NCBI GenBank assembly: GCA_041670605.1
Contig: JBAXYW010000001.1
Span: forward strand, 1-31,912
Reading direction: 5' to 3'
From: Lentisphaeria bacterium
GTDB taxonomy: Bacteria; Verrucomicrobiota; Lentisphaeria; Oligosphaerales; Oligosphaeraceae
Length of the DNA stretch: 31,912 nt
Shown: positions 734 through 23,464 of the stretch, piece by piece
Layout: each line of letters begins with the position of its first letter
Numbering within the stretch: the stretch's first letter is position 1
Notes under the pieces: generated by a model
Database searches by the model: none
Told to the model about the DNA's origin: nothing
Seen by the model: only the letters and a program-made list of their open reading frames with translations
Made by a program: the position numbers and the translations under genes

Positions 734-737
734 AAAA

Positions 738-4102: not shown

Positions 4103-4103
4103 C

Positions 4104-5078
4104 ATGAATTTCAAAGAAATTTTCGACGAGTTACAACGTTTTGATGAAGAGTACATTCCCTTTCCACCCTTTGTCGTCGCGGTTGATGCGGTTAAAGCGA
4201 ATCTTGCGCTGTTTCGCGAGACGGGCATTGCCCAGCATTTGCTAGTGCTGGGTGAAAGCGGTGCCGGAAAAAGCAGTCTCTGCCGCTGGATCGAGCAGCA
4301 ATATTCCAAATTTACGTTGCCTGATCGGGATGTTACACCGGTACTGATTGTGTCGGTTCCCTCGGCGGCTACTATTTCAAGCGTGGCCTCGGCCATGCTT
4401 GAAAAACTGGGTGATCCGGCTGCGACCACCGGAACTGTGTCGGCGAAAACGTCGCGGGTAATTAAGTTATGCCGCGCCTGCCGGGTGGAAATGATCTTGT
4501 TCGACGAAGCCCAGCATATTCACGACCGAGGCAGAGCCACCACGCATTACATGGTGGGTGACTGGTTAAAATCGTTAATCGATCAGACCGGCGTGCCGAC
4601 CGTGTTTCTTGGTCTGCCTCGCCTCGAACAAATCTTACAAGTTAACGAACAACTACGGCGACGCTTTTCGCGGCGTATTCGTTTGGCTTTGGGCCAAAGT
4701 GACAAAAATTCCATCCATGCCGAATGCCTCCAACTGTTCCGATCTCTGGGCTCCTGCTTGCCATTACCATTGTTGTGTGGTCGGTATGGCTGGGATGAAC
4801 TGGGTATGCGTCTACACTACGCCAGTGATGGTCGTGTTGCGTATATCAAAAAACTCTTGGCATCCGCGTTGCGGCTCGCATTGGAAACTGAAATAGTGGA
4901 GATTGGCCCAACACTGCTGGAACAAGCCTTTACCGAGGAAATATGGTGGGAGGGTGTGGGCAAGCTAAATCCTTTCAATCCTGCTTTCGAGTTTCGCCGC
5001 CTGGATCGGGGTAATGAGCCGTTCGAATCTGGTAATTTCAGTAGTGCTCGTAAGGTCCGCAAGGAGGCGGCATGTTGA
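4104..5078 (+). CDS. tnsC: TnsC/TniB AAA+ ATPase
   Basis: Walker A GESGAGKS, Walker B ILFDEAQH, arginine-finger region QLRRRF. ATG 4104 lies 1 bp after the tnsB stop (ORF track start 4026 overlaps tnsB). Confidence 0.9.
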   Translation: MNFKEIFDELQRFDEEYIPFPPFVVAVDAVKANLALFRETGIAQHLLVLGESGAGKSSLCRWIEQQYSKFTLPDRDVTPVLIVSVPSAATISSVASAMLEKLGDPAATTGTVSAKTSRVIKLCRACRVEMILFDEAQHIHDRGRATTHYMVGDWLKSLIDQTGVPTVFLGLPRLEQILQVNEQLRRRFSRRIRLALGQSDKNSIHAECLQLFRSLGSCLPLPLLCGRYGWDELGMRLHYASDGRVAYIKKLLASALRLALETEIVEIGPTLLEQAFTEEIWWEGVGKLNPFNPAFEFRRLDRGNEPFESGNFSSARKVRKEAAC

Positions 5079-5743
5079 TTCCATTTAACGACTATCCGGT
5101 TCGACCTCAGGTAGCGCCAGGGGAAAGTCTGATGGGGTATGTTTACCGGTTTTATAGTGTCAATGGGTATCGTATACCTTACACCGCCAATAAGTGGATA
5201 CGTACCTTATCACGAGGCTGGGCAGAAGACTTCGATGAGGCTTTCAAGGCCACACAATCGATCTTTGGCAATGTTGCCACCCTTGATCGCTTTGGCTGGA
5301 TTCGAGTTCGCCAACATATGGATTCAAATCGATCTGAAACTATGGCATATAGGATTGAGCGAAGTCATCAGCCAGCTGGTTTTTGTCCAACATGCTTGAA
5401 TGAGTCTGGTTTTTATTACGAATTATGGGAATACCTCAAAGTTGAGGTATGTCCGCTTCATGTCTGCAAGTTGGTTACCCGTTGCCCAAACTGTTTAAGT
5501 AATTTTTCCTGGCGCCGGCTTTTAACCGATTGGAGATGCTTCTGCGGGCTAGAGATGACCACTGTACCTACAGAGCCCGTCATGCCTTATTCATTCTCGT
5601 CGACCAATAAAGTGGCATTTATGGTTTTTCCTGAATTGCCCATCACATTGAAACATAACTTGGAGCGGGTGTTAGCGCCTTATGCCGAGGATAGGTTCCT
5701 GCGTGAGTGTAGAGCGAGACGGGAGGACATGACCCGTCGATGA
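5072..5743 (+). CDS. tniQ: Short TniQ-family protein (223 aa)
   Basis: P.RPQ..PGESLMGYVYR N-terminus; Zn-binding FCPTCL, CPLH, CPNC, CFCG; AAGGAGG RBS; overlaps the tnsC stop. Confidence 0.8.
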   Translation: MLIPFNDYPVRPQVAPGESLMGYVYRFYSVNGYRIPYTANKWIRTLSRGWAEDFDEAFKATQSIFGNVATLDRFGWIRVRQHMDSNRSETMAYRIERSHQPAGFCPTCLNESGFYYELWEYLKVEVCPLHVCKLVTRCPNCLSNFSWRRLLTDWRCFCGLEMTTVPTEPVMPYSFSSTNKVAFMVFPELPITLKHNLERVLAPYAEDRFLRECRARREDMTRR

Positions 5744-7593: not shown

Positions 7594-8244
7594 ATGAAAA
7601 CCATCACCTTTATTCGTCATGGCCAAAGTACGGCGAATGCCGGCGGTATCACGATGGCACACGATGCCATTCCGCTATCGGAATTGGGTATACGTCAGGC
7701 CAAGATTTTGGCTGATATGCTCAAACTGCAACCGTCGGCGATTTATGTATCCGAATTTGTTCGGACTCATGAAACGGCCAAACCGTTTTGCGAAAAAGTA
7801 TCGATGCCAGCGACAGTTCAGCCGTTGCTCAATGAATTATCGAGTATCGATCCAGCGTTGATACAAGGTATGAATGGCGAACAGCGCCGTCCTATTGCCG
7901 ATGCTTATTGGCAAGCGGCAGATCCAACTAAACGCATGGGCAAGTGCGCCGACACCTTCGTTGAATTCGAGCAGAGGGTTGCTGCGTTCACCTCCGAATT
8001 AGATGCTTTGCCGGATAACTCGGTGCTATTTGGTCACGGCATTTGGTTTGGCATGCTGACTTGGAAATTACTGGGGTTCAACGCCAGGGATAGTCAGAGT
8101 ATCAAAGCCTTCCGCCGGTTCCAGATGGGATTGCCGATGCCGAATTGTGCGGTGTATACGCTTGACTCTCCGGCTCCCTGTCATTGGCGGGTAAGGGTTA
8201 ATGAAGAAGTGATGCACAGGATATTAGCGTTGGCGTCTAAGTGA
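7594..8244 (+). CDS. Histidine phosphatase (phosphoglycerate mutase-like) family protein
   Basis: N-terminal FIRHGQS motif, RT.ETA, and a C-terminal FGHG catalytic His. Starts 3 bp after the tniQ stop. Confidence 0.9.
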   Translation: MKTITFIRHGQSTANAGGITMAHDAIPLSELGIRQAKILADMLKLQPSAIYVSEFVRTHETAKPFCEKVSMPATVQPLLNELSSIDPALIQGMNGEQRRPIADAYWQAADPTKRMGKCADTFVEFEQRVAAFTSELDALPDNSVLFGHGIWFGMLTWKLLGFNARDSQSIKAFRRFQMGLPMPNCAVYTLDSPAPCHWRVRVNEEVMHRILALASK

Positions 8245-8290
8245 GATGGGTATCCATCAATCTCTTTTCTATTGGGTGAGGAATATGAAT

Positions 8291-8689
8291 ATGCAATATG
8301 AATGCTTGCCAAAATCGGATCTTCAAAGGCTAAAGCAAGAAGTCCTGGATCAGCTGCCCGAGGCTGCATTACCCGCAAATTTGCCGGATCATTGGTTGGA
8401 TATGATTGCTCGCGATCTGGAAGAAACAGTCGGAACTGGAGGGCATGGTGGTGACTCGTCGTCCTATGCATCGGCTCCTTTAGCGCTTATCGTGCATATT
8501 ATGGCCGCTAAAACTTCGAGCGAACGTCTTGAAATTTCACTTGAAACTTTGCATCGCTATTTCTGTGATCTTCGTATTGAAGTCAACCTGGAAATCGTAA
8601 ATCGTAGAACTGAGATCAAAGTAGAGTCGGCAACGCTGGAAACCATTTTTTCGAATCGGGATGTCAGAATACTTAATCGAAGAAGATAA
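8291..8689 (+). CDS. Hypothetical protein (~132 aa)
   Basis: Open frame 8246-8689; a GAGG RBS fits ATG 8291 best. No recognised motif. Confidence 0.7.
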   Translation: MQYECLPKSDLQRLKQEVLDQLPEAALPANLPDHWLDMIARDLEETVGTGGHGGDSSSYASAPLALIVHIMAAKTSSERLEISLETLHRYFCDLRIEVNLEIVNRRTEIKVESATLETIFSNRDVRILNRRR

Positions 8690-8907
8690 GTCTCAATATT
8701 GGGAGGTGAAATCAAGTAGGATCAAGCCGGCATGACGCGTTAATGGTAAATAAATTGCAGACCCTTGGAAACCAACGCTTAGAAATATGATTGTTCGTGA
8801 TTTGGAGTTCGAATAATAGAGCAGCTCTAGCAGTGCTGCGAGCAGATTAATGCCATTCATTAATGGGTTTATAGTAAGGAATTTAGGCTGTTTCAGTATG
8901 GCTAAAA

Positions 8908-8937
8908 TCGACTGCCTGGATAAGGGGCTGATACAAT
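8908..8937 (+). promoter_or_regulatory. Candidate sigma70 promoter for the AlbA_2/ATPase gene
   Basis: TCGACT (8908-8913), 18-bp spacer, TGa-TACAAT extended -10 (8929-8937). Confidence 0.35.
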
Positions 8938-8984
8938 CGCCTGTTGAATTACGACTGGTAGTAATTCATCTTGAATAAGGCATA

Positions 8985-10634
8985 TTGGAGCAAAATCGAT
9001 TGAGTCAGGAAGGACAGCTGCTCGACAAAAAATCCCTTCGGTCAGTGACCGGAAAGACAGCTGACTGGAATGAGTTGGCTAAGGATTGTATTGCCTTTGC
9101 AAACGCTACCGGCGGTCGGTTGTTGATAGGTATCGAAGATAATCAGGCGTCCCCAGACGCCAACCAGATTATTCCTGACGACCTCCCGGACACCATTCGA
9201 CGCAAGCTAGCCGAGCGTACTGTCAACGTCACCTCGCTGCCAGTCATTGTTACCGATCCAAACGGTGGACGATATATAGAATTGACCATTCCTCGATCCA
9301 TAGCTGTAGCATCTACCACGGATGGACGTTATTTCCTCCGTATTGCCGATCAGAGCAAGCCTATAACTGGCGATGATGTCATGCGGCTTGCAGGTGAACG
9401 ATCAGCATTACCTTGGGAAACCCAAACCAGCCTAAATGTTGGTCGTGATAATGTTGACAGCGACAAGCTTGAAAAACTGATTAACGACCTTCGAGCTTCG
9501 GATCGAGTGAAATCGTCGGTAAAAGAAAAATCGTCAGCAGAGTTACTTGATCACTATCAGCTAGCACAGGGACAATTTCTGACAAACCTGGGTATTCTTT
9601 GCGTTGGTCAACAACGGCACCGAGTCCAGCTAGCCACGGCGCCCGTTATTCAGTTCATCAAGTACGACGAACAAGACCAGAAAGTAAACAAGCTGGTATG
9701 GGATGATCAGACTGCTAACCCGATGGAGTTAATAGAATCCGTCTGGCAAGAGATACCTGATTTTCGTGAACGCTATGAATTGCCCGATGGCCTTTTTCGC
9801 CAATACATTCCGGCCTTTGACGAGATTGTAATTCGTGAGCTTCTGGTCAATGCACTGGTTCACCGACCCTATACCCAACGAGGCGATATTTTCCTCAACC
9901 TGTTTCCGGATCGGCTCGAAATCGTTAACCCAGGACTGCTGCCTTTGGGCGTTACACCCAAAAACGTGCTTCACACCACGGTGCGCCGTAACGAAAACCT
10001 GGCCAGGTTATTCCACGACCTAAAGCTAATGGAACGAGAAGGCAGCGGCTTCGATAAGATCTATGAAATCTTGTTGTCGCAAGGCAGACCGGCACCAGAG
10101 TTAATCGAAACGCACGACCGTGTTCAGGTTACAGTGCGCAGGCGCATCCTAAAACCCGATGTCATCGACTTTATAGCGAAAGCAGACCAGACATACCAAC
10201 TCACTCAACGCGAACGCATTACCTTGGGCTTATTGGCTCAACGTGAAGCCCTTTCCGCTCGAGAATTGATTGCTGCATTAGAACTTTCATCAGTCGATGC
10301 ACTTCAACCCTGGTTATCCAGGCTGCTTGATTGGGAAATTGTTCGCAGTATTGGCCGCACCCAGGCCACTCGCTATTACATTGATCCCGCGCTATTGAGA
10401 AGTCTGGATTTTGTTGGTGGCACCACGCTCAAGCGTATCGAACCCCATCGATTACTGGCCCTGATTGTGGAGGATGTCAGGCACTATCCGTTATCCAAAA
10501 TAAGCGACATTCACCAGCGCATTGGACCCGAGATACCTCGTTCGCGCATCAGGCGTAGTATTGAACAATTGGTTAATGACGGCAAGTTGCAGGCAGAGGG
10601 GGTGCGAAGTGGCACACGCTATCGTCTCCCATAA
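8985..10634 (+). CDS. AlbA_2/Schlafen-domain protein with RecG-C-like ATP-binding domain and C-terminal wHTH
   Basis: EGQLLDKK and IAFANATGGRLLIGIED (AlbA_2 signature); IRELLVNALVHRPY, NPG, RRNENLA, EREGSGF (HATPase_c_4-like); C-terminal wHTH ending GVRSGTRYRL. The TTG start is uncertain. Confidence 0.85.
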   Translation: MEQNRLSQEGQLLDKKSLRSVTGKTADWNELAKDCIAFANATGGRLLIGIEDNQASPDANQIIPDDLPDTIRRKLAERTVNVTSLPVIVTDPNGGRYIELTIPRSIAVASTTDGRYFLRIADQSKPITGDDVMRLAGERSALPWETQTSLNVGRDNVDSDKLEKLINDLRASDRVKSSVKEKSSAELLDHYQLAQGQFLTNLGILCVGQQRHRVQLATAPVIQFIKYDEQDQKVNKLVWDDQTANPMELIESVWQEIPDFRERYELPDGLFRQYIPAFDEIVIRELLVNALVHRPYTQRGDIFLNLFPDRLEIVNPGLLPLGVTPKNVLHTTVRRNENLARLFHDLKLMEREGSGFDKIYEILLSQGRPAPELIETHDRVQVTVRRRILKPDVIDFIAKADQTYQLTQRERITLGLLAQREALSARELIAALELSSVDALQPWLSRLLDWEIVRSIGRTQATRYYIDPALLRSLDFVGGTTLKRIEPHRLLALIVEDVRHYPLSKISDIHQRIGPEIPRSRIRRSIEQLVNDGKLQAEGVRSGTRYRLP

Positions 10635-10635
10635 T

Positions 10636-10773
10636 TTGGCTCAAAATCGGCTCTATCGGCCAAGCTTGAGTCAAACAGCTGCGCTAAATAGCCAGCATTT
10701 TGAAATAAGTGATTGTAATAAAATGTATTTTTTTTGGCTCACATTTAAATCATGAACCAAGTTGACGAGCCAA
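10636..10773. repeat. Array of TTGGCTCA-like 8-mers in both orientations
   Basis: Exact forward copies at 10636 and 10734; reverse 7/8 copies at 10667, 10753 and 10766; 6/8 copies at 10647 and 10656. Confidence 0.55.
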
Positions 10774-10829
10774 AATGGGCGATACTCCAGAAGTTACGGT
10801 ATACAACGCGGCAGGGAAGACGGTAACGC

Positions 10830-13628
10830 ATGTCTAAATCCGAAGCACAAACGCGCGCAGAGCTTATCGATCAGCACCTTGCCCAATCTGGCTGGAATGT
10901 TAAAGACCCTACACAGGTCGTCGAAGAATTCGACATCTTGACGGGTCTGCCAGAGGGCGTGGATGAACCACGTACGCCTTACGAGGGTCACCAATTCAGC
11001 GACTACGTCCTGCTGGGCAAAGATCGTAAACCACTGGCCGTCATCGAAGCCAAGAAGTCCAGCCGTGATGCCGCCATAGGCCGTGAGCAAGCCAAGCAAT
11101 ACTGCTACAACATTCAGAAGCAGTTGGGCTGCGAGTTGCCGTTCTGCTTTTACACCAATGGCCTCGAAACCTACTTTTGGGATCTGGAAAATGCCCCGCC
11201 GCGCAAAGTGGTTGGCTTTCCTACCCGTGATGATCTTGAACGCTTTGCCTACATCCGTCGCAATCGCAAACCATTGACGCAGGAGTTTATCAATACATCT
11301 ATTGCTGGCCGAGATTATCAAATCCGTGCCATCCGTGCTGTGCTGGAAGGCATCGAGCAAAAGAAGCGTGATTTTCTTTTAGTCATGGCCACCGGCACCG
11401 GCAAGACCCGTACCTGTATTGCCATGACCGATGCCTTGATGCGCGCTGCTCATGCCGAAAAGGTGCTGTTCCTCGTCGACCGCATCGCGCTGCGCGAACA
11501 GGCACTACTGGCCTTCAAAGAGCACTTACCCAACGAACCACGCTGGCCCAACGTGGGCGAAAAACTGATTGCCAAAGATCGCCGCATTTACGTGGCCACC
11601 TATCCCACGATGCTCAACGTCATACGGGATGAGACCCAACATTTGTCACCGCATTTTTTCGACTTCATCGTGGTCGATGAAAGCCACCGCTCGATTTACA
11701 ACACCTATGGCGAAATCCTCGATTACTTCAAAACCCTCACCCTGGGCTTGACGGCGACACCGACCGACATCATAGACCACAACACCTTCCAGCTTTTTCA
11801 CTGTGAAGATGGTCTGCCAACCTTTGCCTACACCTTTGAGGAAGCCGTTAACCGGGTGCCGCCTTACCTCTGCAACTTTCAGGTCATGAAGATTCAGACC
11901 AAGTTCCAGATGGAGGGCATCAGCAAGCGCACCATTTCACTGGAAGACCAGAAAAAGCTTATTTTGCAAGGCAAGGATGTCGAGGAAATTAACTTCGAAG
12001 GTACCCAGCTCGAAAAGCAAGTCATCAACAAAGGCACCAATACCCTGATCGTCAAGGAGTTCATGGAGGAGTGCATCAAGGACACCAATGGTGTACTGCC
12101 CGGCAAGACCATTTTCTTCTGCTCATCCAAAGCCCACGCCCGCCGCATCGAAGAAATCTTCGACAAACTCTATCCGCAATACCACGGCGAACTGGCCAAG
12201 GTCCTTGTGTCTGACGATCCTCGCGTGTATGGCAAAGGTGGCTTGCTGGATCAGTTCACCAACAATGACATGCCGCGCGTCGCCATCAGCGTGGATATGC
12301 TCGATACTGGTATCGACGTGCGCGAGATCGTCAACCTTGTTTTCGCCAAGCCGGTGTATTCATATACCAAATTCTGGCAGATGATCGGACGTGGTACCCG
12401 GTTGCTCGAAACCAGCAAGCCCAAACCTTGGTGTACCGAAAAGGATGTGTTTCTAATTATCGATTGCTGGGATAACTTTGAATACTTCAAGCTGCAACCC
12501 AAAGGCAAGGAACTGAAACCGCAGTTGCCGCTGCCGGTGCGCCTGGTCGGACTGCGCCTGGACAAGATTGAAAAAGCCATTGACAGCGGCCGTGCCGATG
12601 TTGCCGAGAGAGAAGTTGCCAAACTGCGCCGGCAGGTCGCCGCACTACCCAAGGAATCCGTGGTAATCAAAGAGGCCGCCACCGCGTTGGCCCGCCTCGA
12701 CGAGGAAAACTTCTGGATCAGCCTGAACCATCAGAGGCTTGAATTTCTACGCGCCGAGATTAAGCCCCTTTTTCGCACTGTTTCCGAAGCCGACTTCAAA
12801 GCCATGCGTTTCGAGCGCGACCTGCTTGAATATTCGTTGGCTCTGCTAAATGAAGACAAGGAACAAGCCGACACCCTCAAGGATGGCATCGTCGAGCAAA
12901 TCAGTGAGCTGCCGCTCTCGGTCAGCTTCGTAAAGCAGGAAGAAACCCTGATTCGCGCCGCGCAAACCAACCATTACTGGGCCAAGGCCGATGAAGACCG
13001 TTTTGACGAAATGGTAGAAAAACTCGGCCCGCTGATGAAATTCCGCGAACAAATGACCGGTCCCGGCCCGGTGCATCTCGATCTGACCGATGTACTGCAC
13101 AACAAGGAAATCGTCGAGTTCGGCCCGCAACACGAGGCCGTCAGCATCAGCCGCTACCGCGAGATGGTCGAAGCCTTAATTAACGAATTGACCGCGCACA
13201 ACCCAATACTGCTGAAGATCAAGCACGGTGAAGCGGTCACGCTAGACGAGGCCGATCAACTGGCCGAACTGCTGCACGATGAGCACCCGCACATCACCGA
13301 AGACTTGCTGCGCCAGGTCTATAAAAATCACAAGGCCCGCTTCATCCAATTCATCCGCCACATTCTCGGTATTGAAGTACTTAAGAGCTTTCCCGATGAA
13401 GTCAGTGCCGCATTTGCCCAGTTCATTCGTGCCCATACCACACTCACCAACCGTCAATTGGAATTCCTCAACCTATTAGAGAAGTTCATCATCGAACGCG
13501 AAAAAGTGGATAAAAAAGATCTGATCAATACGCCCTTCACGGTCATTCACCCGCAAGGTATCCGTGGTGTATTCAGTCCTGCCGAAATCAACGAAATCTT
13601 GCAGTTAACCGAACGGTTGGCTGCGTAA
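10830..13628 (+). CDS. hsdR: Type I restriction endonuclease subunit R (EcoAI/EcoEI-like architecture)
   Basis: SDYVL...VIEAKK nuclease motif, MATGTGKT, DESH, LTATP, QMIGRGTR, and an EcoEI_R_C-like C-terminus. Confidence 0.95.
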   Translation: MSKSEAQTRAELIDQHLAQSGWNVKDPTQVVEEFDILTGLPEGVDEPRTPYEGHQFSDYVLLGKDRKPLAVIEAKKSSRDAAIGREQAKQYCYNIQKQLGCELPFCFYTNGLETYFWDLENAPPRKVVGFPTRDDLERFAYIRRNRKPLTQEFINTSIAGRDYQIRAIRAVLEGIEQKKRDFLLVMATGTGKTRTCIAMTDALMRAAHAEKVLFLVDRIALREQALLAFKEHLPNEPRWPNVGEKLIAKDRRIYVATYPTMLNVIRDETQHLSPHFFDFIVVDESHRSIYNTYGEILDYFKTLTLGLTATPTDIIDHNTFQLFHCEDGLPTFAYTFEEAVNRVPPYLCNFQVMKIQTKFQMEGISKRTISLEDQKKLILQGKDVEEINFEGTQLEKQVINKGTNTLIVKEFMEECIKDTNGVLPGKTIFFCSSKAHARRIEEIFDKLYPQYHGELAKVLVSDDPRVYGKGGLLDQFTNNDMPRVAISVDMLDTGIDVREIVNLVFAKPVYSYTKFWQMIGRGTRLLETSKPKPWCTEKDVFLIIDCWDNFEYFKLQPKGKELKPQLPLPVRLVGLRLDKIEKAIDSGRADVAEREVAKLRRQVAALPKESVVIKEAATALARLDEENFWISLNHQRLEFLRAEIKPLFRTVSEADFKAMRFERDLLEYSLALLNEDKEQADTLKDGIVEQISELPLSVSFVKQEETLIRAAQTNHYWAKADEDRFDEMVEKLGPLMKFREQMTGPGPVHLDLTDVLHNKEIVEFGPQHEAVSISRYREMVEALINELTAHNPILLKIKHGEAVTLDEADQLAELLHDEHPHITEDLLRQVYKNHKARFIQFIRHILGIEVLKSFPDEVSAAFAQFIRAHTTLTNRQLEFLNLLEKFIIEREKVDKKDLINTPFTVIHPQGIRGVFSPAEINEILQLTERLAA

Positions 13629-13642
13629 TACAAAGGTAAACC

Positions 13643-15349
13643 ATGCTCCAAAACAACCCCGAACTCAAAAGCAAGATCGACCAGCTCTGGAACAAATTCT
13701 GGAGCGGCGGCATCAGCAACCCGCTTACCGCCATCGAGCAAATCACTTATTTGCTATTCATGAAGCGGCTCGACGAACTGGACCATAAAAAACAGGCTGA
13801 CGCCGAATGGACGGGAGAGCCCTACACATCCAAATTTAAGGGTACATGGATTCCGACCGAATACCGGGCGCGGCGAGAAGAAAAAGATACGGATGCTGAA
13901 TGGTTGAAAAAGCTCGAAGATGAGCAGCGCTACGCCATCGATAAAAACACTCTGCGCTGGACTGAATTCAAACACATGCAGGCCGAAGAGATGCTGCAGC
14001 ACGTGCAAGGGAAGGTGTTCCCATTTCTCAAAGACCTTAACGGCGCCGAGTCCAACTTCACCCACCACATGAAAAACGCGGTGTTCATCATTCCCAAGCC
14101 AGCGTTGCTGGTGGAAGCGGTGAAGACCATCGACGAAATCTTCGCAGTGATGGAGAAGGATTCGCAGGAAAAAGGTCAGGCTTTTCAGGACATCCAGGGT
14201 GATGTCTATGAAATGCTGCTGTCGGAAATCGCTACCGCCGGAAAAAACGGCCAGTTCCGCACCCCTCGCCACATCATCAAACTGATGGCCGATCTTGTAC
14301 AACCGCAACTGGGCCATAAGATAGCCGATCCGGCATGCGGCTCAGGTGGTTTCTTGCTCGGTGCGTATCAGTACATCGTCACTCAGCTCGCCATCAAAGC
14401 AGGCACCAAAGACCTAGCTCCAGATGAAGATGGCTTTGTACGCACCTCGGTCGCCGCCGCGCTCACCGAAAATGCCCAAGCCATTCTGTCCGGTTCGCTT
14501 TGGGGTTACGACATCGACGGCACCATGGTGCGCCTGGGGTTGATGAACCTGATGATGCACGGCATCGACGAACCGCATATCGATTACAAGGACACGCTCA
14601 GCAAGAGCTTTGTCGAAGAGTCCGAATACGACATCGTGATGGCCAATCCGCCGTTTACCGGCAGCATCGACAAGGGCGACATCAACGAAAACCTGCAACT
14701 GGCCACTACCAAAACCGAGCTGCTGTTTGTTGAGAATATCTACCGCCTGCTAAAAATAGGCGGTACCGCTGGTGTGATTGTGCCGCAGGGGGTGCTGTTT
14801 GGTTCTGGCGGCGCCTTCAAAACCCTACGCCAGTTGCTGGTGGAGCGTTGCGACCTCAAGGCCGTCATCACCCTGCCCAGCGGCGTGTTCAAACCCTATG
14901 CCGGGGTCAGCACTGCCATTCTGTTGTTTACCAAGGTCTGGGGGCCGAAAGACAAAGTCACCCAGCCTGCCACCAAACACATCTGGTTTTACGAAATGGC
15001 CGCCGACGGCTATTCGCTGGACGACAAACGTAGCAAGCAGGAAGGCAATGGCGACCTGCAAGACATCATTACCAAATACCACGTCCGCAACTCGGCCACC
15101 GACACTGACCGCACGGCGAAATACTTCATGGTGCCGCGTACCGAGATCGCAGACGAAAAGAACAACTATGACCTTTCGCTGTCACGCTACAAAACCGATG
15201 TGTTCGAGGAAGTACACTACGACGCGCCGGGCGTGATTCTGGATCGGTTGATTCAGGCCGAGGTAGGCGATGTGGACGAGACGGGACTTGCCAAGGTGCA
15301 AAGCGGAATCGTGCGCGAGTTGTTGGAATTGAAGGGGATGGTGGGATGA
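13643..15349 (+). CDS. hsdM: Type I R-M methyltransferase subunit M
   Basis: GQFRTPRHII, DPACGSGGFL (motif I) and NPPF (motif IV, N6-adenine). Confidence 0.95.
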   Translation: MLQNNPELKSKIDQLWNKFWSGGISNPLTAIEQITYLLFMKRLDELDHKKQADAEWTGEPYTSKFKGTWIPTEYRARREEKDTDAEWLKKLEDEQRYAIDKNTLRWTEFKHMQAEEMLQHVQGKVFPFLKDLNGAESNFTHHMKNAVFIIPKPALLVEAVKTIDEIFAVMEKDSQEKGQAFQDIQGDVYEMLLSEIATAGKNGQFRTPRHIIKLMADLVQPQLGHKIADPACGSGGFLLGAYQYIVTQLAIKAGTKDLAPDEDGFVRTSVAAALTENAQAILSGSLWGYDIDGTMVRLGLMNLMMHGIDEPHIDYKDTLSKSFVEESEYDIVMANPPFTGSIDKGDINENLQLATTKTELLFVENIYRLLKIGGTAGVIVPQGVLFGSGGAFKTLRQLLVERCDLKAVITLPSGVFKPYAGVSTAILLFTKVWGPKDKVTQPATKHIWFYEMAADGYSLDDKRSKQEGNGDLQDIITKYHVRNSATDTDRTAKYFMVPRTEIADEKNNYDLSLSRYKTDVFEEVHYDAPGVILDRLIQAEVGDVDETGLAKVQSGIVRELLELKGMVG

Positions 15350-16890
15350 AAGTTAAATCCCTAAACGAAATTACAAACCCAAAGCAATGGAAGAACCTTC
15401 CAATCTCAAAGCTGAAAGATTCAGGGTTCCCTGTGTATGGGGCAAACGGAATTATTGGTTTTTTTGACGAATACAATCATGCGAATCCCACCATCGCTAT
15501 TACATGCCGAGGCGCAACGTGCGGAAATATTCACATCACTCGTGAAAATTCCTATATCACTTCAAATGCGATGGCGCTTGATGACCTCGACGAAAACGAG
15601 TGCGAGCTAAATTATCTAGCACAGTACCTTCGATATCGTGGCTTGAGTGATGTAACGACGGGCGCAGCGCAGCCGCAAATAACCAGAGCAAATTTAGAAA
15701 AAGTAACAATACCCCTACCGCCCCTCGACGACCAAATCCGCATTGCCCATCTTCTCGGCAAAGTGGAAGGGCTGATCGCCCGGCGCAAACAGCACCTGCA
15801 ACAACTCGACGACCTGCTCAAGAGCGTGTTTCTGGAGATGTTTGGCGACCCGGTGAGGAATGAGAAGGGGTGGGTCACCAAAACGCTCCCTCAACTTGTT
15901 CTTCCAGGAAAGAATTCCTTAAAGCGGGGGCCATTCGGGGGAGCTCTAAAGAAGGAAATCTTTGTTGAGACGGGCTATTTGGTTTATGAACAAAACCACG
16001 CCCTAAACAATGATTATTCATTCGCAAGGTACTTTGTAACAGAGGAAAAATATCAAGAGTTAATCGACTTCAAAGTCGTGCCTGGAGATGTATTGATTAG
16101 CTGTTCGGGCGTCTATTTGGGAAAGCTATCTATAGTCCCTGCAGATGCGAAGCCTGGGATCATCAATCAGGCGCTACTTAAGGTTTCGTTGGATCCTCGA
16201 AAGATTCGGCATAGGTTCTTTGTTCATGTCTTTGGGAGTCCGCAGTTCAAAGGAAAATACTTCCCCTCAAATCGTGGTGGGGCTATACCGAACCTGCCGC
16301 CAATGTCGGTAATGAAGGAAATCCCGTTTATTTACCCGCCACTTGAGTTACAGCAGGATTTCACGGACCTTTTCGAAAAGGTGGAGTGGCTCAAGTCTCA
16401 GTACCAGCAAAGCCTCACCGATCTGGAGTCACTTTACGGCGTAGTGAGCCAGCAGGCATTCAAGGGTGAGCTGGATTTGTCGCGCGTACCGCTACCGACC
16501 ATGCCGCCCGAAGGAGAACAACCTATGGCTATCGAGCTATCACCACCACAGACCGAAGAAATCGCCATCAATCTGCCCGATAATGAATTAATGTTGATCG
16601 CACTGGAGAATCCAGAGCAACGCCCAGCACTGCTCGGCCACTGGCTGGAGGCTTATCGCGGGCAGCTCGGCGACGCCCCCTTTTCCTTGGAGCGCTTCAT
16701 GGCTGCCGCGCAAACCCGGCTCTCTGAATTGCATCCGGACACTGACTTTGAGTTGGGTTCTGACGACTACGAGCACATCAAGACATGGGCATTTGAGGCA
16801 CTGGCCTCCGGCAAATTGATGCAAGTACTTGACGATGACGAGAACCTAATTAAATTGCGCAAGCGATCTGATCAATGGGGAAGTTGGTAA
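15346..16890 (+). CDS. hsdS: Type I R-M specificity subunit S, two TRDs plus a ~138-aa C-terminal extension
   Basis: TRD1 (PVYGANG...AQPQIT), conserved PLPPLDDQIRIA...FLEMFGDP, TRD2, then PPLELQQDF...AFKGEL ending at 16473, followed by extra sequence. ATGA overlap with hsdM. Confidence 0.92.
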   Translation: MKVKSLNEITNPKQWKNLPISKLKDSGFPVYGANGIIGFFDEYNHANPTIAITCRGATCGNIHITRENSYITSNAMALDDLDENECELNYLAQYLRYRGLSDVTTGAAQPQITRANLEKVTIPLPPLDDQIRIAHLLGKVEGLIARRKQHLQQLDDLLKSVFLEMFGDPVRNEKGWVTKTLPQLVLPGKNSLKRGPFGGALKKEIFVETGYLVYEQNHALNNDYSFARYFVTEEKYQELIDFKVVPGDVLISCSGVYLGKLSIVPADAKPGIINQALLKVSLDPRKIRHRFFVHVFGSPQFKGKYFPSNRGGAIPNLPPMSVMKEIPFIYPPLELQQDFTDLFEKVEWLKSQYQQSLTDLESLYGVVSQQAFKGELDLSRVPLPTMPPEGEQPMAIELSPPQTEEIAINLPDNELMLIALENPEQRPALLGHWLEAYRGQLGDAPFSLERFMAAAQTRLSELHPDTDFELGSDDYEHIKTWAFEALASGKLMQVLDDDENLIKLRKRSDQWGSW

Positions 16891-16893
16891 GCG

Positions 16894-18690
16894 ATGAAAC
16901 TGCTGCGCCTCAAGATTACCGACCCGGCAGGATTTCGCAGCCTTACCTGTGGTTTTGAGCATCACTTCCGCACCGAATGGTCGTTACAGGAAGAACTGAC
17001 CAAGCCCGAAGGCTTCGCCCCCTTCGTCTGCGCCGGACCCAATGGCAGTGGCAAATCCAATCTGCTTGAGGCCCTGGCGGCGATTTTCTTTCAGTTGGAA
17101 ATATTGCGCGTGCGGCGCAGTTTTCTGCCAGAGGTGTTGCAAAGCGATGAGCTCGATTATTCTCCCAAAGGTTTCGAGCTGGACTACCTGATCCAAGTGC
17201 CGCCCGAATACATCAGACCAGATGGACAGGTGTGGGCTAAAGTTGGCGTATGGAAGAATCCTGGAGAATCCGTTCGATTGAATTGGGAGAATCAAGGTGA
17301 TTTCGATACCGATATATACGAGGTCTTCAGGGCTGGCTTTGCGGATATTTTGTTACCCCAATACGTGTTGGGATACTCGTCAGGCGAGAACGAAATCCTG
17401 AGCTTGCCATTCTTCAAGCTGCGCTTCGTGCAGTTCGACGAGTACTGGAATGCTCTGACCCGGCAGTTGCCTTATCCGGGGCACCCGGAAACTCGGCTGG
17501 CCTATCTCGACAATGGTTTTAGCCAAGCCATCCTGTTGTGTAATCTGCTATTTCAGGACGCCGCCACACTGCAACCCTTTCGCGAGGATATCGGCATTGA
17601 GGCGCTGCAGGAGTTTCGCATCATCATCAAGCGCAGCATTGAGGTTTCAGTCGACGTCGCCGAAGGTTTTATGGCGGGCGACTATGTCGAGAAAGGATAT
17701 GTTCAGGACGACTACACTACCTCAAATCCAGCACTGAGAAAGGATAGTGAATCCGGTCGCTACACCATCAATCTGATGCAGCTGCTGGAAGCTAGTTCAA
17801 ACTCCGCAAAGAATTTCGATCCCTTGGTCACCCGCCTGAGGCGCTGCGCCACGCTGAGTTATGTGGACGACGCGAACGACACGCTGATTCTTGACTTTTG
17901 GGTCAATGAAGAAACAAAAAAGGCATTCCGGGCCAATTTTGAAGATGACCCACTGATGCTGTTCCAGGCTTTTCAGGTGTTGCTGACACTCAATCTGTAT
18001 TCCGTGAGTGATGCGCTCAAGTCCGACCTGTACCGTTCCACCAGCCACTACGCCAGTGAAACGGTGCCGACGCTGGCGTCTGACCAGCGCATCATGCGCT
18101 TCAAGTTCGTGCGTTTCAGCAAACAGGGTGTGACACAGCCGATGATGCTCAAAGAATTGTCGGACGGCGAGCACCAGTTGCTGCACAGCCTGGGCTTGTG
18201 CCTGTTGTTTCGAGAGACCAATAGTCTGTTCCTGCTGGACGAGCCAGAGACTCACTTCAACCCAGACTGGCGCGCCAACTTCATCACCCGCCTGCGCCAG
18301 TGCCTCCCCGGTACGGGGAATGTGGGGCAGGAAATGCTGATCACCACCCACACGCCGTTTTTGATTTCGGACAGCAAACCGGACAAGGTGCTGGTGTTTA
18401 AGAAGGACAAAAGTACCGGTGAAGTCAGCATCAGCCGCCCGGAATACAACACGCTGGGGGCTTCGATCAACAAGATCACCATGAGCACCTTCGGCAAGCG
18501 TGAGACCATCGGTGGGTATGCGCAGGAAATTCTAGACCGGCTACGTACCCGCTTCGATGCCGGCAACGAAGAGGCATCCGTATTGATTGAAGAAATCAAC
18601 CACGAACTTGGTGACTCGGTGGAAAAAATCCTGTTGATCAAGGCCATTCTTGACAAGGTTGAGGGTCCGCAATCGGAGGGCAAAGGCTGA
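16894..18690 (+). CDS. Restriction-system-associated ABC/AAA ATPase (PtuA-like)
   Basis: Walker A GPNGSGKS, signature LSDGE, Walker B LLDEPETH, H-loop TTHTP. Starts 3 bp after hsdS. Confidence 0.88.
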   Translation: MKLLRLKITDPAGFRSLTCGFEHHFRTEWSLQEELTKPEGFAPFVCAGPNGSGKSNLLEALAAIFFQLEILRVRRSFLPEVLQSDELDYSPKGFELDYLIQVPPEYIRPDGQVWAKVGVWKNPGESVRLNWENQGDFDTDIYEVFRAGFADILLPQYVLGYSSGENEILSLPFFKLRFVQFDEYWNALTRQLPYPGHPETRLAYLDNGFSQAILLCNLLFQDAATLQPFREDIGIEALQEFRIIIKRSIEVSVDVAEGFMAGDYVEKGYVQDDYTTSNPALRKDSESGRYTINLMQLLEASSNSAKNFDPLVTRLRRCATLSYVDDANDTLILDFWVNEETKKAFRANFEDDPLMLFQAFQVLLTLNLYSVSDALKSDLYRSTSHYASETVPTLASDQRIMRFKFVRFSKQGVTQPMMLKELSDGEHQLLHSLGLCLLFRETNSLFLLDEPETHFNPDWRANFITRLRQCLPGTGNVGQEMLITTHTPFLISDSKPDKVLVFKKDKSTGEVSISRPEYNTLGASINKITMSTFGKRETIGGYAQEILDRLRTRFDAGNEEASVLIEEINHELGDSVEKILLIKAILDKVEGPQSEGKG

Positions 18691-19775
18691 TGCTGTTTGC
18701 CTACACCTACGTTCCGCACAAGATGGAGAGGATGCAAGAGTTCATCGACTTTATCTTTTTTGAGGTGTGGTGCAGAGCACCAATCGGCCTAGTCTTCCAC
18801 CCTGATCTTTTCGATGGCAATCCCGACCTCAAAGCAGTTATGTCAGAGTTCGGGTTTTCTGCGCGAGCGGCAGAGCGCGGAAAGACGTTTTATAAAGACG
18901 TGAAAGCAATCTACGAACTTTTTGCGCCACTCTCGGCACAGGAAATTGATCAATTCAAGCAGTGGTACCTGGGCAACAACGACATTGAGAAGGTTTGTGC
19001 GAACGATCCAGCTTCACCGCTCCTGCGCTACGTCGATATTCCGGCAGCCCACCAAGCCTTGAGCGAGCAGCTCGCGTCGTTCTTCAAAGGGCTGTATTCA
19101 TCGCTACTCGACCTAGTCGCACTTCAAGAAAAAATAGGCAACATCGACGATCACTACAAGACCTTCGTGCAGACCAACAAAGCAGGCAAGTGCCCGTTCT
19201 GTGGAATCAGTGACCTGTTCAGTGAGTATCACAGCAAGCGTGAGGCTTACGATCATTACTTGCCCAAGGCGTTATACCCGTTTAACTCGATCAATTTCCG
19301 AAATCTTGTCCCGGCTTGCCACCACTGCAACAGCAGCTACAAGACCAGTAAGGACCCAGCCTATCCGCCAAAAGACCCGGCGCGGGCGGCTCAGCGCCGC
19401 GCAGTCTTTTATCCCTACACGGCAACGCCCTATGCCATCGAACTGCAAGTGACTTTGCAAAATTCGGATATCGAAAAATTGACGCCGGCGGACGTCAACC
19501 TGCATTTTGGCCCTGCCTCCCTCGACGAAAAAATCGACACTTGGAAGGACGTGTACGGCATTGAAGAGCGCTACAAAGCCAAGTTCTGCAGTAGCGATGC
19601 ACTAGACTGGTTGGAGCAGGTTCGCATCTTGGATAGAGATCACAGTGTCGCGCCTACAGCCTACCTCGTCAGCCTCGAAGAGCAAGCACAAAAGTCTCCC
19701 GTCGCGAATTGCAATTTCCTCAAGAAGCCGTTTCTCGAAGCCTGTAACCAGATTGGCATCTTCGACGCCATGTAA
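18690..19775 (+). CDS. HNH endonuclease (PtuB-like, with a long N-terminal domain)
   Basis: CPFCG...DHYLPK..YP....NFRNLVPACHHCN; TGATG coupling to the ATPase. Confidence 0.85.
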   Translation: MLFAYTYVPHKMERMQEFIDFIFFEVWCRAPIGLVFHPDLFDGNPDLKAVMSEFGFSARAAERGKTFYKDVKAIYELFAPLSAQEIDQFKQWYLGNNDIEKVCANDPASPLLRYVDIPAAHQALSEQLASFFKGLYSSLLDLVALQEKIGNIDDHYKTFVQTNKAGKCPFCGISDLFSEYHSKREAYDHYLPKALYPFNSINFRNLVPACHHCNSSYKTSKDPAYPPKDPARAAQRRAVFYPYTATPYAIELQVTLQNSDIEKLTPADVNLHFGPASLDEKIDTWKDVYGIEERYKAKFCSSDALDWLEQVRILDRDHSVAPTAYLVSLEEQAQKSPVANCNFLKKPFLEACNQIGIFDAM

Positions 19776-20054
19776 AACGCCTCGTTAGCTGGCTGTAAGC
19801 CGAATGGGGGGCTAGTCTTATCTTAATCCTCCGATTTTAGCTTAGAAAACCTGACGAATTGGAAGACAGCGTCAGACTTTTGCTAGTTTTTTGCTAAAAT
19901 GGATTATAGTCCTTACCGGAAATGATTTCTATCTAATTGAATAATATATAATTTATATTTCTATTAGATGCTAAGCCTCACTCATTTGTGGAAAAAATTC
20001 GAAGCCGTTTTCCAATAGTGGCATTTATCTTTAGGATTGAAAAATTAAGCCAAT

Positions 20055-21041
20055 ATGGGACGTGAAGGCCAATGGATCGACCAGCCTGTCGATCAAGCAA
20101 TAAATATCGCAAATTGGAGAGGTGATGATGAATTTGAAATTTATCCAGAGGGTGCACGCGACAAATCACTTCTGATAAGCCCAAATCAATCCAGATATGA
20201 TTTTCTGATCCCTGGTCATCGGTATTTATTCAAGCATGCTTTTCAGAAGGGAAAGCGGTGCCATCCTGATCAATTCTGGGCGGAAATCGTCGCCTATCGA
20301 ATTGGTTGCATGTTGGATGTGCCGGTGCCACCCGCTTTTGTAGCATATAATAGTGACAATAATGTTTGCGGCGCCTTGATCGAATGGTTTTTGAATTACC
20401 CCGATCAGCCAGAAGAGAGGCGGGTTCCTGGCGGCGACATTATGGTGGACATGATCCCAGGTTATGACCGTAAAAAGGGTAAGGAGCATAACTTTGTAAC
20501 CATAGCTCGTTATTTTGCGGTTGTAGATAGAAATTTCTCATTCGAACCCAATTGGCTAATTTTCTGGTGCGATATGCTCTTGTTTGACGCCATAATCGGT
20601 AACACGGATCGCCATCAGGACAATTGGGAATTGTTATGGAACCAAGTACAAGCTAGGCACGTCAGAATGTCGCCTGTTTTTGATAATGGCACGAGTCTTG
20701 GTTATGAAATATTGGAGTCGAAAATGGACGATTTCTACCAACCAGATAAAATGGCGGCCTACATCAGAAGAGGCAGACACCACCTTCGCTGGCAGTCAAA
20801 AGACGAACTGCAATGCCGGCATGTGGACCTCCTACTGGACTTAGCAGTAAAATTTCCAATGTTGAACGGTCGTATCAGAGAAAAACTGGCTTTATTTGAT
20901 CCCGATCGATTACGTTCTATCATGGAAAATTGCAGGCAATATTCCGTGCCGGTTCCATTAACCCAAAAACGTGCTGATTTTATTTGCCATTTAGTTATAT
21001 CCAGATATAGAACCATTGAAGCAGAAGTAAACCAACTGTAA
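20055..21041 (+). CDS. HipA-like/CtkA-like Ser/Thr kinase
   Basis: YLFK, WAEIVAYRIG, FDAIIGNTDRHQDNW (catalytic loop) and SPVFDNGTSLG (Mg-binding motif). Confidence 0.88.
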   Translation: MGREGQWIDQPVDQAINIANWRGDDEFEIYPEGARDKSLLISPNQSRYDFLIPGHRYLFKHAFQKGKRCHPDQFWAEIVAYRIGCMLDVPVPPAFVAYNSDNNVCGALIEWFLNYPDQPEERRVPGGDIMVDMIPGYDRKKGKEHNFVTIARYFAVVDRNFSFEPNWLIFWCDMLLFDAIIGNTDRHQDNWELLWNQVQARHVRMSPVFDNGTSLGYEILESKMDDFYQPDKMAAYIRRGRHHLRWQSKDELQCRHVDLLLDLAVKFPMLNGRIREKLALFDPDRLRSIMENCRQYSVPVPLTQKRADFICHLVISRYRTIEAEVNQL

Positions 21042-21763
21042 TGAACCTGATACGCCATGTTCACCAACCAAGCCGCTTGTTATTGGTTTGGCAATCACCA
21101 GAAGGCAAATCTCGGAAAAGATTTGTTGTTGGTGAGATATGCCTGATCGATGGTAATTGTGTGTTTCGCTATTTACCCAATACCGATGACTTTAACAATG
21201 CTTGTGTCGAAGGATTTATGTGCTATCCGGCATTTCGCAAGCTAAATCAGGAATACAGCGAGAATGTTTTAGAGACATTTTTGCGTCGTATACCTCCCAG
21301 AAGACGTGGCGATTTTAATAAATATCTTGAGCAATGGCGACTGGTACCCGATGCTGTTATATCTGACTTCGCGTTGCTAGGCCACACAGGAGCAAAATTG
21401 CCTAACGATGGCTTCTCACTAATAAATCCATTTGATGGCATTAGTGCACCGTATGAGTTTTACATTGAAGTAGCTGGCTTTCGTTATCAGAAAACCATTT
21501 CTTTAAACGATATTACAGTTGGAATGCCTGTTGCTTTTGTTGTTGAGCCGGAAAATGAACATGATCATCAAGCGGTGAAAATCGAGGTTATGGGTAGAAA
21601 AATTGGCTATGTAAATAAAGTTCAGAGTCCTGCCTTCATTCGTTGGTTAGATAGCAATATAGTTACTGGCGTAATTGAACGTATTAATGGAACCGAAGAT
21701 CGGCCTTTGATTTATATCTATGGCTGCGTTAGTTCTAAACATGCTGATCGGATTGCGGCTTAA
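21041..21763 (+). CDS. HIRAN-domain protein (N-terminal HipA-N/HipS-like region plus C-terminal HIRAN)
   Basis: VAGFRY...EPENEHDHQAVKI...KIGYV (HIRAN signature); N-terminal YPAF...FLRRIPPRRRGDF; TAATG coupling to the kinase. Confidence 0.85.
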   Translation: MNLIRHVHQPSRLLLVWQSPEGKSRKRFVVGEICLIDGNCVFRYLPNTDDFNNACVEGFMCYPAFRKLNQEYSENVLETFLRRIPPRRRGDFNKYLEQWRLVPDAVISDFALLGHTGAKLPNDGFSLINPFDGISAPYEFYIEVAGFRYQKTISLNDITVGMPVAFVVEPENEHDHQAVKIEVMGRKIGYVNKVQSPAFIRWLDSNIVTGVIERINGTEDRPLIYIYGCVSSKHADRIAA

Positions 21764-22084
21764 TAAAACGGATAGGTGCGGGGTCTGATTTTGATAGAGG
21801 CACCCGCATTCTCATATCTGATTGTGTACTGGCAGCTACACATTTATAGGGGTCTGTGATCTTGTGCCGGGACTCACTAGCTCAAAACATGCATCAACTT
21901 CTTATGTAACAACAAAACATCTAGATAGCTTTGATTGGATAGAGCCTTCCGAAGTATGGGAAGTACTATCAAGTTGGCCGCGCGATACCTAGCAATATGC
22001 TTAAGCACCCATGCCCTCCAAACTTTCATTGCTCGAACCTTGCCGTTTAATATCAGGGTATGTTTCGATTTCCACCGCCCCGAA

Positions 22085-22250
22085 ATTTTTCACTATTAGT
22101 GGCACAAAATCCGGATTTTTTCATTAATTGTGTCAAAAGTGGGTATGATGGCTGACATAAATAATGAAAAATCGCTTTAAAATCAATGGACCATTTTTCA
22201 CTAATTCTGTCACCCAACAACTTGGAAGCCTGACACAGATATTGAAAAAT
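22085..22250. repeat. Five imperfect copies of a 20-bp motif TGACAnAAwTArTGAAAAAT
   Basis: 22085-22104 (rev, TGCCACTAATAGTGAAAAAT), 22116-22135 (rev, TGACACAATTAATGAAAAAA), 22153-22172 (fwd, TGACATAAATAATGAAAAAT), 22193-22212 (rev, TGACAGAATTAGTGAAAAAT), 22231-22250 (fwd, TGACACAGATATTGAAAAAT). Confidence 0.85.
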
Positions 22251-22459
22251 CCAGTGCTGCTAAATGTGTTCTTTTTCCATGGGGATAGCACAGCAAATTA
22301 CAAAGCCAAGTGATAGCTCGTGAAGGCTACTCAATGGATTATGCGGATTTTCTGGCTTTGTCTCTAAGGCTTAGGAAATAATGGCGTTTGAATACCTGCT
22401 TCTCTTTAGTTAGTGCAAGCGTGATTCAACAATATGATTTTGATCTAGTGGTTATATGA

Positions 22460-23464
22460 ATGGCCTATGAAAAACCTTGGAAAAGTTACGAAGACCAGTT
22501 GAATCAGTTGATTCAAAGAAGATTGGTCGTTACTCATAGAACTAAAGCTTTAGAATATCTCGAGCGGATTGGCTACTACCGCTTAAGTGGTTACTGGTTT
22601 CCCTTTCGTGAACGCAGTGGAACATGCTGTCCGCTAATCGCACCCATTGGCAGAAAGAAATTTAAACGTGGTGATACTGATCGGTTCGTGTTGGATACGT
22701 TTAAGGAGGGAGCCAGTTTTCAAAATGCCGTCAATTTATATGTGTTTGATAAGAAGCTGCGTTTGCTGACTATGGATGCGTTGGAGCGTATCGAGATTGG
22801 CTTACGGGTTGATATTTCGCATTCGCTCGGTAAAAAAGATTCATTCGCCTATCTGAAACCCGAGTTATTATTTGACGGTTTTGCGAAGAAACTCGATGAA
22901 AAAACGGGCTTAACAGAACATCACGAATGGCTGAGCAAACAAGCGGCGTTGATTTCCCGGTCAAAAGAGGAGTTTATCAAGCACAATAAATCCAAATATG
23001 GCTTTCCTTTGCCTATCTGGGTAGTCTGCGAAATCTGGGATTTCGGGACTATGTCTACTTTATTTGCTGGAATGATGGAAGTCGACCAAGATGCAATCGC
23101 TAAAAAATATGGGGTGAGTAACGGCCGTGTTTTTGCGTCTTGGTTGCGTAGCTTGAATTATCTGCGCAATGTATGTGCCCATCACAGTCGACTTTGGAAT
23201 CACAATATTGTTGATCAGCCCAAATTATCTCATTTAGGTGAAGTGACATGGATTGATCCATTCCATGGCAATGCCCCTCATAGTCTCGCCCGTCCTTTTT
23301 TATTGCTCTGCATCGCCAAGCACCTGCTGAGTATCATCAATCCATGCTCTGAATGGGGAAAGCGGCTGAAGTTGTTGCTTTTAGAGTTTCCCGATTTACA
23401 ACATTTGGGTCTGAACCTAGCTGGTATGGGTGTTATAGACGGTTGGGAACAGTGGGACTGGTGA
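22460..23464 (+). CDS. Abi family (Abi_2, AbiD/AbiF-like) HEPN RNase
   Basis: LERIGYYRLSGY, LY.FDKKLR...LERIEIGLR, P.W.V.E.WDFG, and the HEPN motif LRNVCAHHSRLWN. Confidence 0.9.
   Translation: MAYEKPWKSYEDQLNQLIQRRLVVTHRTKALEYLERIGYYRLSGYWFPFRERSGTCCPLIAPIGRKKFKRGDTDRFVLDTFKEGASFQNAVNLYVFDKKLRLLTMDALERIEIGLRVDISHSLGKKDSFAYLKPELLFDGFAKKLDEKTGLTEHHEWLSKQAALISRSKEEFIKHNKSKYGFPLPIWVVCEIWDFGTMSTLFAGMMEVDQDAIAKKYGVSNGRVFASWLRSLNYLRNVCAHHSRLWNHNIVDQPKLSHLGEVTWIDPFHGNAPHSLARPFLLLCIAKHLLSIINPCSEWGKRLKLLLLEFPDLQHLGLNLAGMGVIDGWEQWDW

Follow-up and report, generated by a model that had tools for sequence, protein, structure and literature searches.

The segment at 22082-22219 of the window (i.e., the whole stretch of 31,912 nucleotides that was analysed, which is an entire contig of a 593-contig MAG) is very probably, at about 90% in our estimate, the left end of a Tn7-like transposon whose tnsA-tnsB-tnsC-tniQ-tnsD genes lie at 1378-7590. 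The evidence for this reading comes from sequence comparison and consists of the repeats themselves, a layout conserved among relatives, the limits of similarity between these relatives, the target duplications found around some of them, and the link to homologues of TnsB.

The Repeat Array and Its Terminus

Five copies of a 20-bp unit, TGACANAAWTARTGAAAAAT, each with 0-2 mismatches, occupy 22085-22250 in the order reverse, reverse, forward, reverse, forward. This arrangement had been described in an earlier note on the same DNA, and direct reading, a repeat finder, and a pattern search now agree on it. The start-to-start spacings across the five copies are 31/37/40/38. With the consensus given in the earlier note and up to 3 mismatches allowed, exactly these five copies are found in the window, where 0.03 matches would be expected by chance; moreover, five copies were obtained in 0 of 100 dinucleotide-preserving shuffles. 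A weight matrix built from the sites of relatives revealed no further sites in the 31.9-kb window. The search for the motif in the rest of the genome, which the earlier note had proposed as a check, gave no second cluster in the 593 contigs (4.2 Mb) of the assembly at up to 4 mismatches.

On the plus strand, copy 4 runs directly into CCCAACA; the minus strand accordingly reads TGTTGGG-TGACA, with the tip at 22219. The earlier note had placed a terminus at this base, and it is there that the similarity among relatives ends. The features of the array are as follows:

22082-22219, minus strand: very probable complete left end (LE) of the Tn7-like element, a conserved block with sharp inner and outer limits
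22085-22104, minus strand: L3, innermost predicted TnsB site (copy 1 of the earlier note), from pattern search and family alignment
22116-22135, minus strand: L2, predicted TnsB site (copy 2), from pattern search and family alignment
22153-22172, plus strand: Li, inverted internal site (copy 3), from family alignment
22173-22192, no strand: Li-L1 spacer of 20 bp containing AAAATCAATG, which is conserved in the Methylococcales copies and not in Aquabacterium
22193-22212, minus strand: L1, terminal predicted TnsB site (copy 4), from pattern search and family alignment
22213-22219, minus strand: 7-bp tip TGTTGGG, aligning with the tips of relatives, with the predicted transferred 3' end ...ACA at 22219
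22220-22224, no strand: ACTTG, candidate 5-bp target-site duplication, at the same position as the verified duplications in relatives
22231-22250, plus strand: copy 5, a solitary R3-type site outside the element, from its match to the R3 sites of right ends

Of the IHF consensus, the Li-L1 spacer contains the WATCAR half and lacks the TTR half; given this incomplete match and the lack of conservation of the spacer in Aquabacterium, a host-factor (IHF-like) site at this position is only a guess. Scans of the array for promoters, terminators, and Rfam families returned nothing except a chance hairpin match.

Conservation of the Left End in Relatives

Relatives of the TnsB protein were sought by a scan of species-representative genomes. 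They were found in Methylomonas and Methylobacter (73-91% identity) and in Herbaspirillum and Aquabacterium (56-62% identity); none of the 60 searched relatives of the MAG has the intergenic DNA or a close TnsB homologue. The motif of the earlier note is present at all of the Methylococcales loci, where it is always clustered and lies at element boundaries, and a diverged version with the same layout is present in the two Betaproteobacteria (Herbaspirillum and Aquabacterium). Altogether, the motif is borne by 11 complete left ends, the one in the window included, and by twelve right ends, from eight other genomes or plasmids.

These 11 left ends, which are linked to homologous TnsB genes, come from the window, Methylomonas sp. 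TEB (two), M. methanica R-45363 (one), M. defluvii OY6 (three), M. methanica NCIMB 11130 (two), an Aquabacterium MAG (one), and a plasmid of Methylomonas sp. DH-1 (one). They align without gaps with 22085-22219, and all 11 have the order L3(-), L2(-), Li(+), L1(-), the spacings 31, 37, and 40, and a 7-bp tip ending in ACA. The mean column identity is 0.86-0.89 in the four sites and 0.88 in the tip; it is 0.64 in the 17-bp spacer between L2 and Li, in which no column is invariant, 0.43 in the 20 bases outside the tip, and 0.55 in the 20 bases inside L3. This sharp drop in identity on both sides defines the conserved block as 22082-22219, and the same limits were obtained with a MAFFT alignment.

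The inverted site Li is conserved to the same degree as the direct sites (mean identity 0.89, with 11 of 20 columns invariant), and its position is unchanged throughout the 11 complete left ends as well as in two fused ones; in the Aquabacterium element, this position is kept despite the changed sequence of the neighbouring spacer. The mixed orientation of the copies, which had been raised as an objection to a transposon end, is therefore a feature of the left end in this family and no argument against an end.

Might the array instead be the operator, the resolvase res site, or the replication iterons of a lost gene, as the earlier note had in part suggested? Repeated 20-bp units of mixed orientation in an AT-rich intergenic region are what such sites could look like, and the repeat finder showed that copies 2/3 and 3/4 form imperfect palindromes. 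Nevertheless, this explanation is hardly credible. Across 13 related loci, the neighbouring genes vary but the position of the boundary, the duplications, and the link to tnsB are constant; the array there forms the edge of variable cargo and is never found beside a conserved regulator, resolvase, or rep gene. The earlier note had named its occurrence upstream of unrelated regulator or resolvase genes as an observation that would speak against an end, and this was not the case at any of the 13 loci. Moreover, the same site builds the direct-repeat right ends after gyrB (see below), 5-bp duplications flank the arrays, and no promoter-like site is present inside the array. We therefore reject the operator or res alternative in favour of an array that marks the boundaries of a transposon. 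Plasmid iterons in particular were ruled out by the mixed orientation, the uneven spacings (31/37/40/38), and the lack of a rep gene in the window.

Target Duplications and Transposase-Less Elements

The left-end tip in the window aligns with the TGTCGRR and TGTGGGA tips of the relatives, which are bounded by 5-bp duplications. Exact duplications of this length were found around four elements of the family, and they fix the tips to the base:

CTAAT: 2.2-kb element after gyrB in strain TEB
TGATT: 9.7-kb element in M. defluvii
TATAA: 17.3-kb element in M. defluvii
TGACG: Aquabacterium element

The element end proposed by the earlier note at 22219 is thus supported by 11 homologous left ends, by the limit of similarity, and by the duplications in four relatives.

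The 2.2-, 9.7-, and 17.3-kb elements contain no tns genes and, consequently, must be moved in trans. Transposase-less elements with ends of this family and exact 5-bp duplications (L019:1977-11721, L018:1053-18321, and L030:6942-22000) bear genes for metal resistance and molybdate transport, namely, those of a CzcCBA-type efflux pump together with a P-type ATPase and, on the DH-1 plasmid, a modABC unit; these elements are inserted in AT-rich DNA away from gyrB.

The Transposition Genes and the Cargo

The genes to which this left end is assigned, and the cargo that follows them, are:

1378-2133, plus strand: tnsA (Pfam, Tn7_TnsA-like_N)
2096-4102, plus strand: tnsB (Pfam, rve and Mu-transpos_C; PDB search)
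4026-5078, plus strand: tnsC (TnsC/TniB; Pfam, TniB)
5072-5743, plus strand: short tniQ (Pfam, TniQ)
5740-7590, plus strand: long TniQ + HTH gene, TnsD-like (Pfam, TniQ)
7594-21763, plus strand: cargo between the tns genes and the left end (Pfam)

All five tns reading frames are full length and are 73-94% identical to those of Methylomonas and Methylobacter elements. In a PDB search, the best matches of the TnsB protein were the solved TnsB proteins of type I-F3 CASTs (E 8e-71 and 5e-67), with TnsB of ShCAST (1e-37) and TnsB of Tn7 (4e-23) further away. The scan of 22 predicted proteins (from 23 ORFs) in the window found no cas domains, and the window has no CRISPR array. A CRISPR-associated transposon of type V-K or I-F3 was rejected on the basis of the absence of a cas domain in these 22 proteins and the presence of tnsA.

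According to Pfam, the cargo encodes a histidine phosphatase, a Schlafen/AlbA protein, a type I restriction-modification (R-M) system with an ATPase, and a HipA-like/HIRAN pair. Downstream of the array are an Abi_2 gene (22460-23464) and then a second type I R-M operon. Given that the tip of the left end is at 22219 and that copy 5 is not part of the element, abi and the second R-M system are outside the mobile unit; this bears out the earlier note, which had placed both beyond an element end. No tns genes are present to the right of the array as far as the end of a longer contig (see below).

If the left end is correctly identified, the element is more than 22 kb in length, from an unassembled right end to 22219, and carries one type I R-M system, an ATPase module, and the HipA-like/HIRAN pair, while abi and the second R-M/ATPase operon are older, neighbouring DNA. 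This distinction matters for any reading of the defence genes in the window.

Right Ends, gyrB, and the Predicted Partner End

The twelve right ends of the family differ in architecture from the left ends: a TGTCGRR tip is followed by a pair of abutting 20-bp sites and then, after a gap of 3 bp, by one more site, and all three are in direct orientation. The tip of the right end is 3-8 bases (mostly 3-5) after the stop codon of an 805-amino acid gene that Pfam identifies as gyrB. This location was found in seven genomes, from Methylomonas (three species), Methylobacter, Herbaspirillum, and Aquabacterium (relatives' loci, e.g., L006:4418-4500, L010:4110-4200, L008:590-710, L011:4195-4275, and L029:180-260). 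Insertion after gyrB in these relatives appears to be directed by the TnsD-like protein. In the literature searched, no paper names gyrB as an attachment site of a Tn7-like element. In strain TEB, two identical copies of the right end lie 188 bp apart just after gyrB (L014:6230-6490).

The right end of the relatives is 4.8-7.4 kb upstream of tnsA, with variable cargo in between and no site nearer to tnsA. Among this cargo are a Gabija-like OLD-ATPase/UvrD pair, found in strain TEB, and, in another relative, an M24 peptidase (L007:1890-9316; L006:4424-9280). An XRE-type HTH gene directly precedes tnsA in two relatives, and the window has instead an ORF of 110 amino acids (851-1183), which is 82% identical to the neighbour of tnsA in an M. 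defluvii element. In the Herbaspirillum relative, a tnsA/tnsB segment is duplicated (L011:10001-13267) and the N-terminal half of TnsB is matched twice, so tnsB may be disrupted there.

A partner right end was found neither in window 1-1377, nor in the MAG, nor in a longer, 37.6-kb ENA assembly of the same DNA. The earlier note had counted the lack of a partner end in 119-1410 as evidence against a transposon; the answer is that a right end placed as in the relatives would be 4.8-7.4 kb upstream of tnsA and that the contig breaks sooner. Indeed, 947-1377 matches, at 93% identity, the internal sequence that immediately precedes tnsA in the M. defluvii element, and, on the basis of this match, window 1-1377 is interior to the element, with the right end expected a few kb to the left. 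Leftward, both the contig of the window and the 37.6-kb assembly stop in the start of an IS-like transposase gene; the N-terminus at this edge (window 1-52, minus strand, and L024:10682-10751) is one that we take to be IS1595-like. Past the right edge of the window is a DDE_Tnp_1/DUF772 transposase gene (L025:13179-14846). The assembled region thus runs into IS genes on either side, which explains the breaks in the contig.

Copy 5 and Tandem Junctions

The fifth copy lies beyond the tip, and the earlier note had considered this, too, as an objection to a terminus at 22219. Copy 5 has the CAGATA variant, which is found only in R3 among the sites compared, and it is followed by CCAG, as are some R3 sites. 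It matches 20 of 21 bases of R3 in a right end of Methylomonas methanica; when 22220-22460 is compared with the interiors of right ends, only this 21-nt site matches, and the 11 nt before copy 5 do not align clearly with R2.

Junctions between neighbouring elements are recurrent in this family. The left end of one element abuts the right end of its neighbour, with a 5-bp duplication between them, in strain TEB, in M. defluvii, and at two NCIMB 11130 contig ends; such abutments occur in at least four relatives, and fused or truncated junctions occur in three more. The junction in the window (left-end tip, 11 nt, copy 5) resembles that in the DH-1 plasmid (tip, 13 nt comprising the tail of R2, R3). 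This resemblance, together with the R3-type sequence, leads us to interpret copy 5 as the one site that survives of a neighbour's right end: most likely, a tandem element of the same family has decayed there and left this relic, and a copy beyond the terminus can thus be accommodated. The truncation beside copy 5 may have arisen by a deletion or by insertion into a resident end. In Methylobacter KS41, two junctions (L008:3548-3700 and L016:1632-1780) consist of the inner portion of a left end joined to R2/R3 of the adjoining element, with both tips lost. One of the KS41 breakpoints is at Li, which has the same orientation as R3 and a near-identical sequence. This observation suggests recombination between Li and R3.

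The recurrence of tandem left-end/5-bp/right-end junctions in four relatives and the R3-type sequence of copy 5 could also mean that copies 3-5 belong to a second live element, which would run rightward through abi and the second R-M system, so that the array would be the junction of two live ends. We consider this very improbable, given that neither a TGT tip nor R1 nor R2 precedes copy 5 and that copy 3 sits at the position of Li that is conserved in all 11 left ends. Moreover, no matching left end is present in the 5.6 kb beyond the window, nor are there any tns genes downstream.

A second, different end-like sequence was also encountered at junctions. Two left ends at NCIMB 11130 contig breaks (L009:14789-14816; L021:1-30) are abutted by TGTCGGA followed by TTGTCAGATCTCATAATTT, and a similar string occurs in the insertion of about 500 bp that splits a right end on the DH-1 plasmid (L030:6971-7040). 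This sequence may come from another Tn7-like family or from a MITE.

Host, Location, and State of the Element

The longer assembly extends 5.6 kb past the window and contains hsdR, an IS, and then hxlR, an SDR gene, and an RND pump. The chromosomal genes on this contig (L025:15300-18845) encode proteins that are 82-91% identical to those of Methylomonas and are syntenic with two Methylomonas genomes, whereas two genomes from the MAG's own genus give matches of only 27-37%. The contig is therefore probably Methylomonas-like DNA that was binned into the wrong genome. The gyrB gene of the MAG is 56% identical to that of Methylomonas and is directly followed by gyrA, without an insertion; since the chromosomal flank of the contig is Methylomonas-like, this uninterrupted gyrB-gyrA pair is irrelevant. 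In complete Methylomonas genomes, the hxlR flank follows pmbA and is not beside gyrB, and no sites of the family are present at the variable spot after pmbA in the two syntenic genomes. IS elements may have rearranged the region around the element in the window.

These data bear on a further possibility, namely, that the array, although descended from a left end, is today a dead fossil, in an island made immobile by the changed tip, the IS hits on the element, and the loss of the neighbour's end. The tip, TGTTGGG, differs from the usual TGTCGRR of the family at position 4 (and at no other), IS-like genes are present at both ends of the assembled contig, the chromosomal flank is not beside gyrB in relatives, and decayed and fused ends are common in this family. 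However, the Aquabacterium element, which is flanked by a perfect duplication, also varies at position 4 of the tip, where it has G; in the weight matrix, all four sites of the left end in the window reach the scores of sites from elements whose duplications are intact; and the five tns frames are full length and close to those of the relatives. A fossil is consequently unlikely, and we infer that the element with its left end at 22082-22219 may still be mobile.

A Model for Transposition

By analogy with Tn7 and type I-F3 elements, TnsB would bind the four left and three direct right sites and pair the ends (PMC8649781; PMC9371665; bioRxiv 10.64898/2026.07.09.737429). The 3' strand would be cut by TnsB after ...ACA at 22219, and the 5' strand by TnsA. 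TnsC and the TnsD-like protein would then steer the insertion to a few bases after the gyrB stop codon, where the insertion would duplicate 5 bp of the target, which here is presumably ACTTG. As for Li, it may help to fold the left end or to tell left from right.

A bolder reading, which we consider somewhat less likely than not, is that the element belongs to an undescribed family of Tn7-like elements that targets the 3' end of gyrB in Gamma- and Betaproteobacteria, and the left end of which needs Li; the role of Li would be architectural, and the recurrent junctions between tips and truncated right ends would reflect weak target immunity. If so, Li would fold the left end in a different way from that of the related I-F3 CAST, in which an all-direct left end is bent by IHF, and the junctions in the window and the DH-1 plasmid would result from insertion into or beside resident ends. 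The family lends itself to experiment: its attachment point after gyrB is precise, its duplications are verified, transposase-less derivatives occur in nature, and an inverted site is conserved in its left end.

Comparison with Known Systems

A Tn7-like end with an array of TnsB sites is a well-known kind of element; the conserved inverted site is unusual. In Tn7-like elements, conserved arrays of sites among close TnsB homologues have served as a criterion for ends, and adjacent insertions create multiple ends (Benler et al. 2021, PMC8649781); the motif of the present family is absent from the part of the supplement to that study that we consulted. The family resembles Tn7-like elements with TnsD/TniQ-directed sites in its tnsA, tnsB, tnsC, and tniQ/tnsD genes, in its TGT...ACA tips followed by arrays of sites of around 20 bp, in its 5-bp duplications, in the asymmetry of its ends (sites spaced on the left and contiguous on the right), in its insertion directly after a conserved gene, to which the right end is the closer of the two, and in its defence cargo and tandem accretion. 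It differs from Tn7 itself in the number and orientation of the sites: the left end of Tn7 has three, all direct, and its right end four, whereas the left end here has four, one of which is inverted. Moreover, the attachment gene of the family is gyrB, cargo of 4.8-7.4 kb lies between the right end and tnsA in the relatives, and the element in the window has two TniQ-family genes and no tnsE.

ShCAST, a type V-K system, was the likeness proposed in the earlier note, on account of the TGT-N4-TGACA layout. At each end of ShCAST, an 8-bp terminal sequence adjoins the duplication, and the TnsB sites are four in number and unevenly spaced (PMC9371665). The general resemblance between the ends therefore holds, but a closer kinship does not: ShCAST lacks TnsA and uses Cas12k, whereas the element in the window has TnsA and no cas genes, and its TnsB is nearer to that of I-F3 CASTs, with ShCAST TnsB a more distant relative (E 1e-37).

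Mu and Tn402/Tn5053, the transposases of which belong to the same DDE superfamily, also have several transposase sites per end, the number, spacing, and orientation of which vary. In Mu, R3 has the opposite orientation to R1 and R2, and the repeats of Tn402, which are 19 bp long, form arrays. These elements differ from the present family in their proteins (there is no TnsA), in their choice of target, and in their replicative pathways.

The closest solved TnsB proteins are those of the type I-F3 CASTs (VchCAST/Tn6677 and PseCAST), in which the pairing of the ends is under active study. The ends of these CASTs have a terminal sequence followed by 20-bp sites, of which three, unevenly spaced, are on the left, and in VchCAST, a bend-inducing IHF site is present in the gap between LE1 and LE2 (bioRxiv 10.64898/2026.07.09.737429). 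No paper in the literature searched describes an inverted TnsB site, be it for Tn7 or for VchCAST. The element in the window differs from I-F3 CASTs in having neither cas genes nor a CRISPR array, its targeting being presumably the task of the TnsD-like protein. It also differs in the LE1-LE2 gap, where VchCAST has its IHF site and the present family has Li and the spacer. An inverted site in the place of an IHF site is a useful natural variant for the study of end pairing rather than a new principle.
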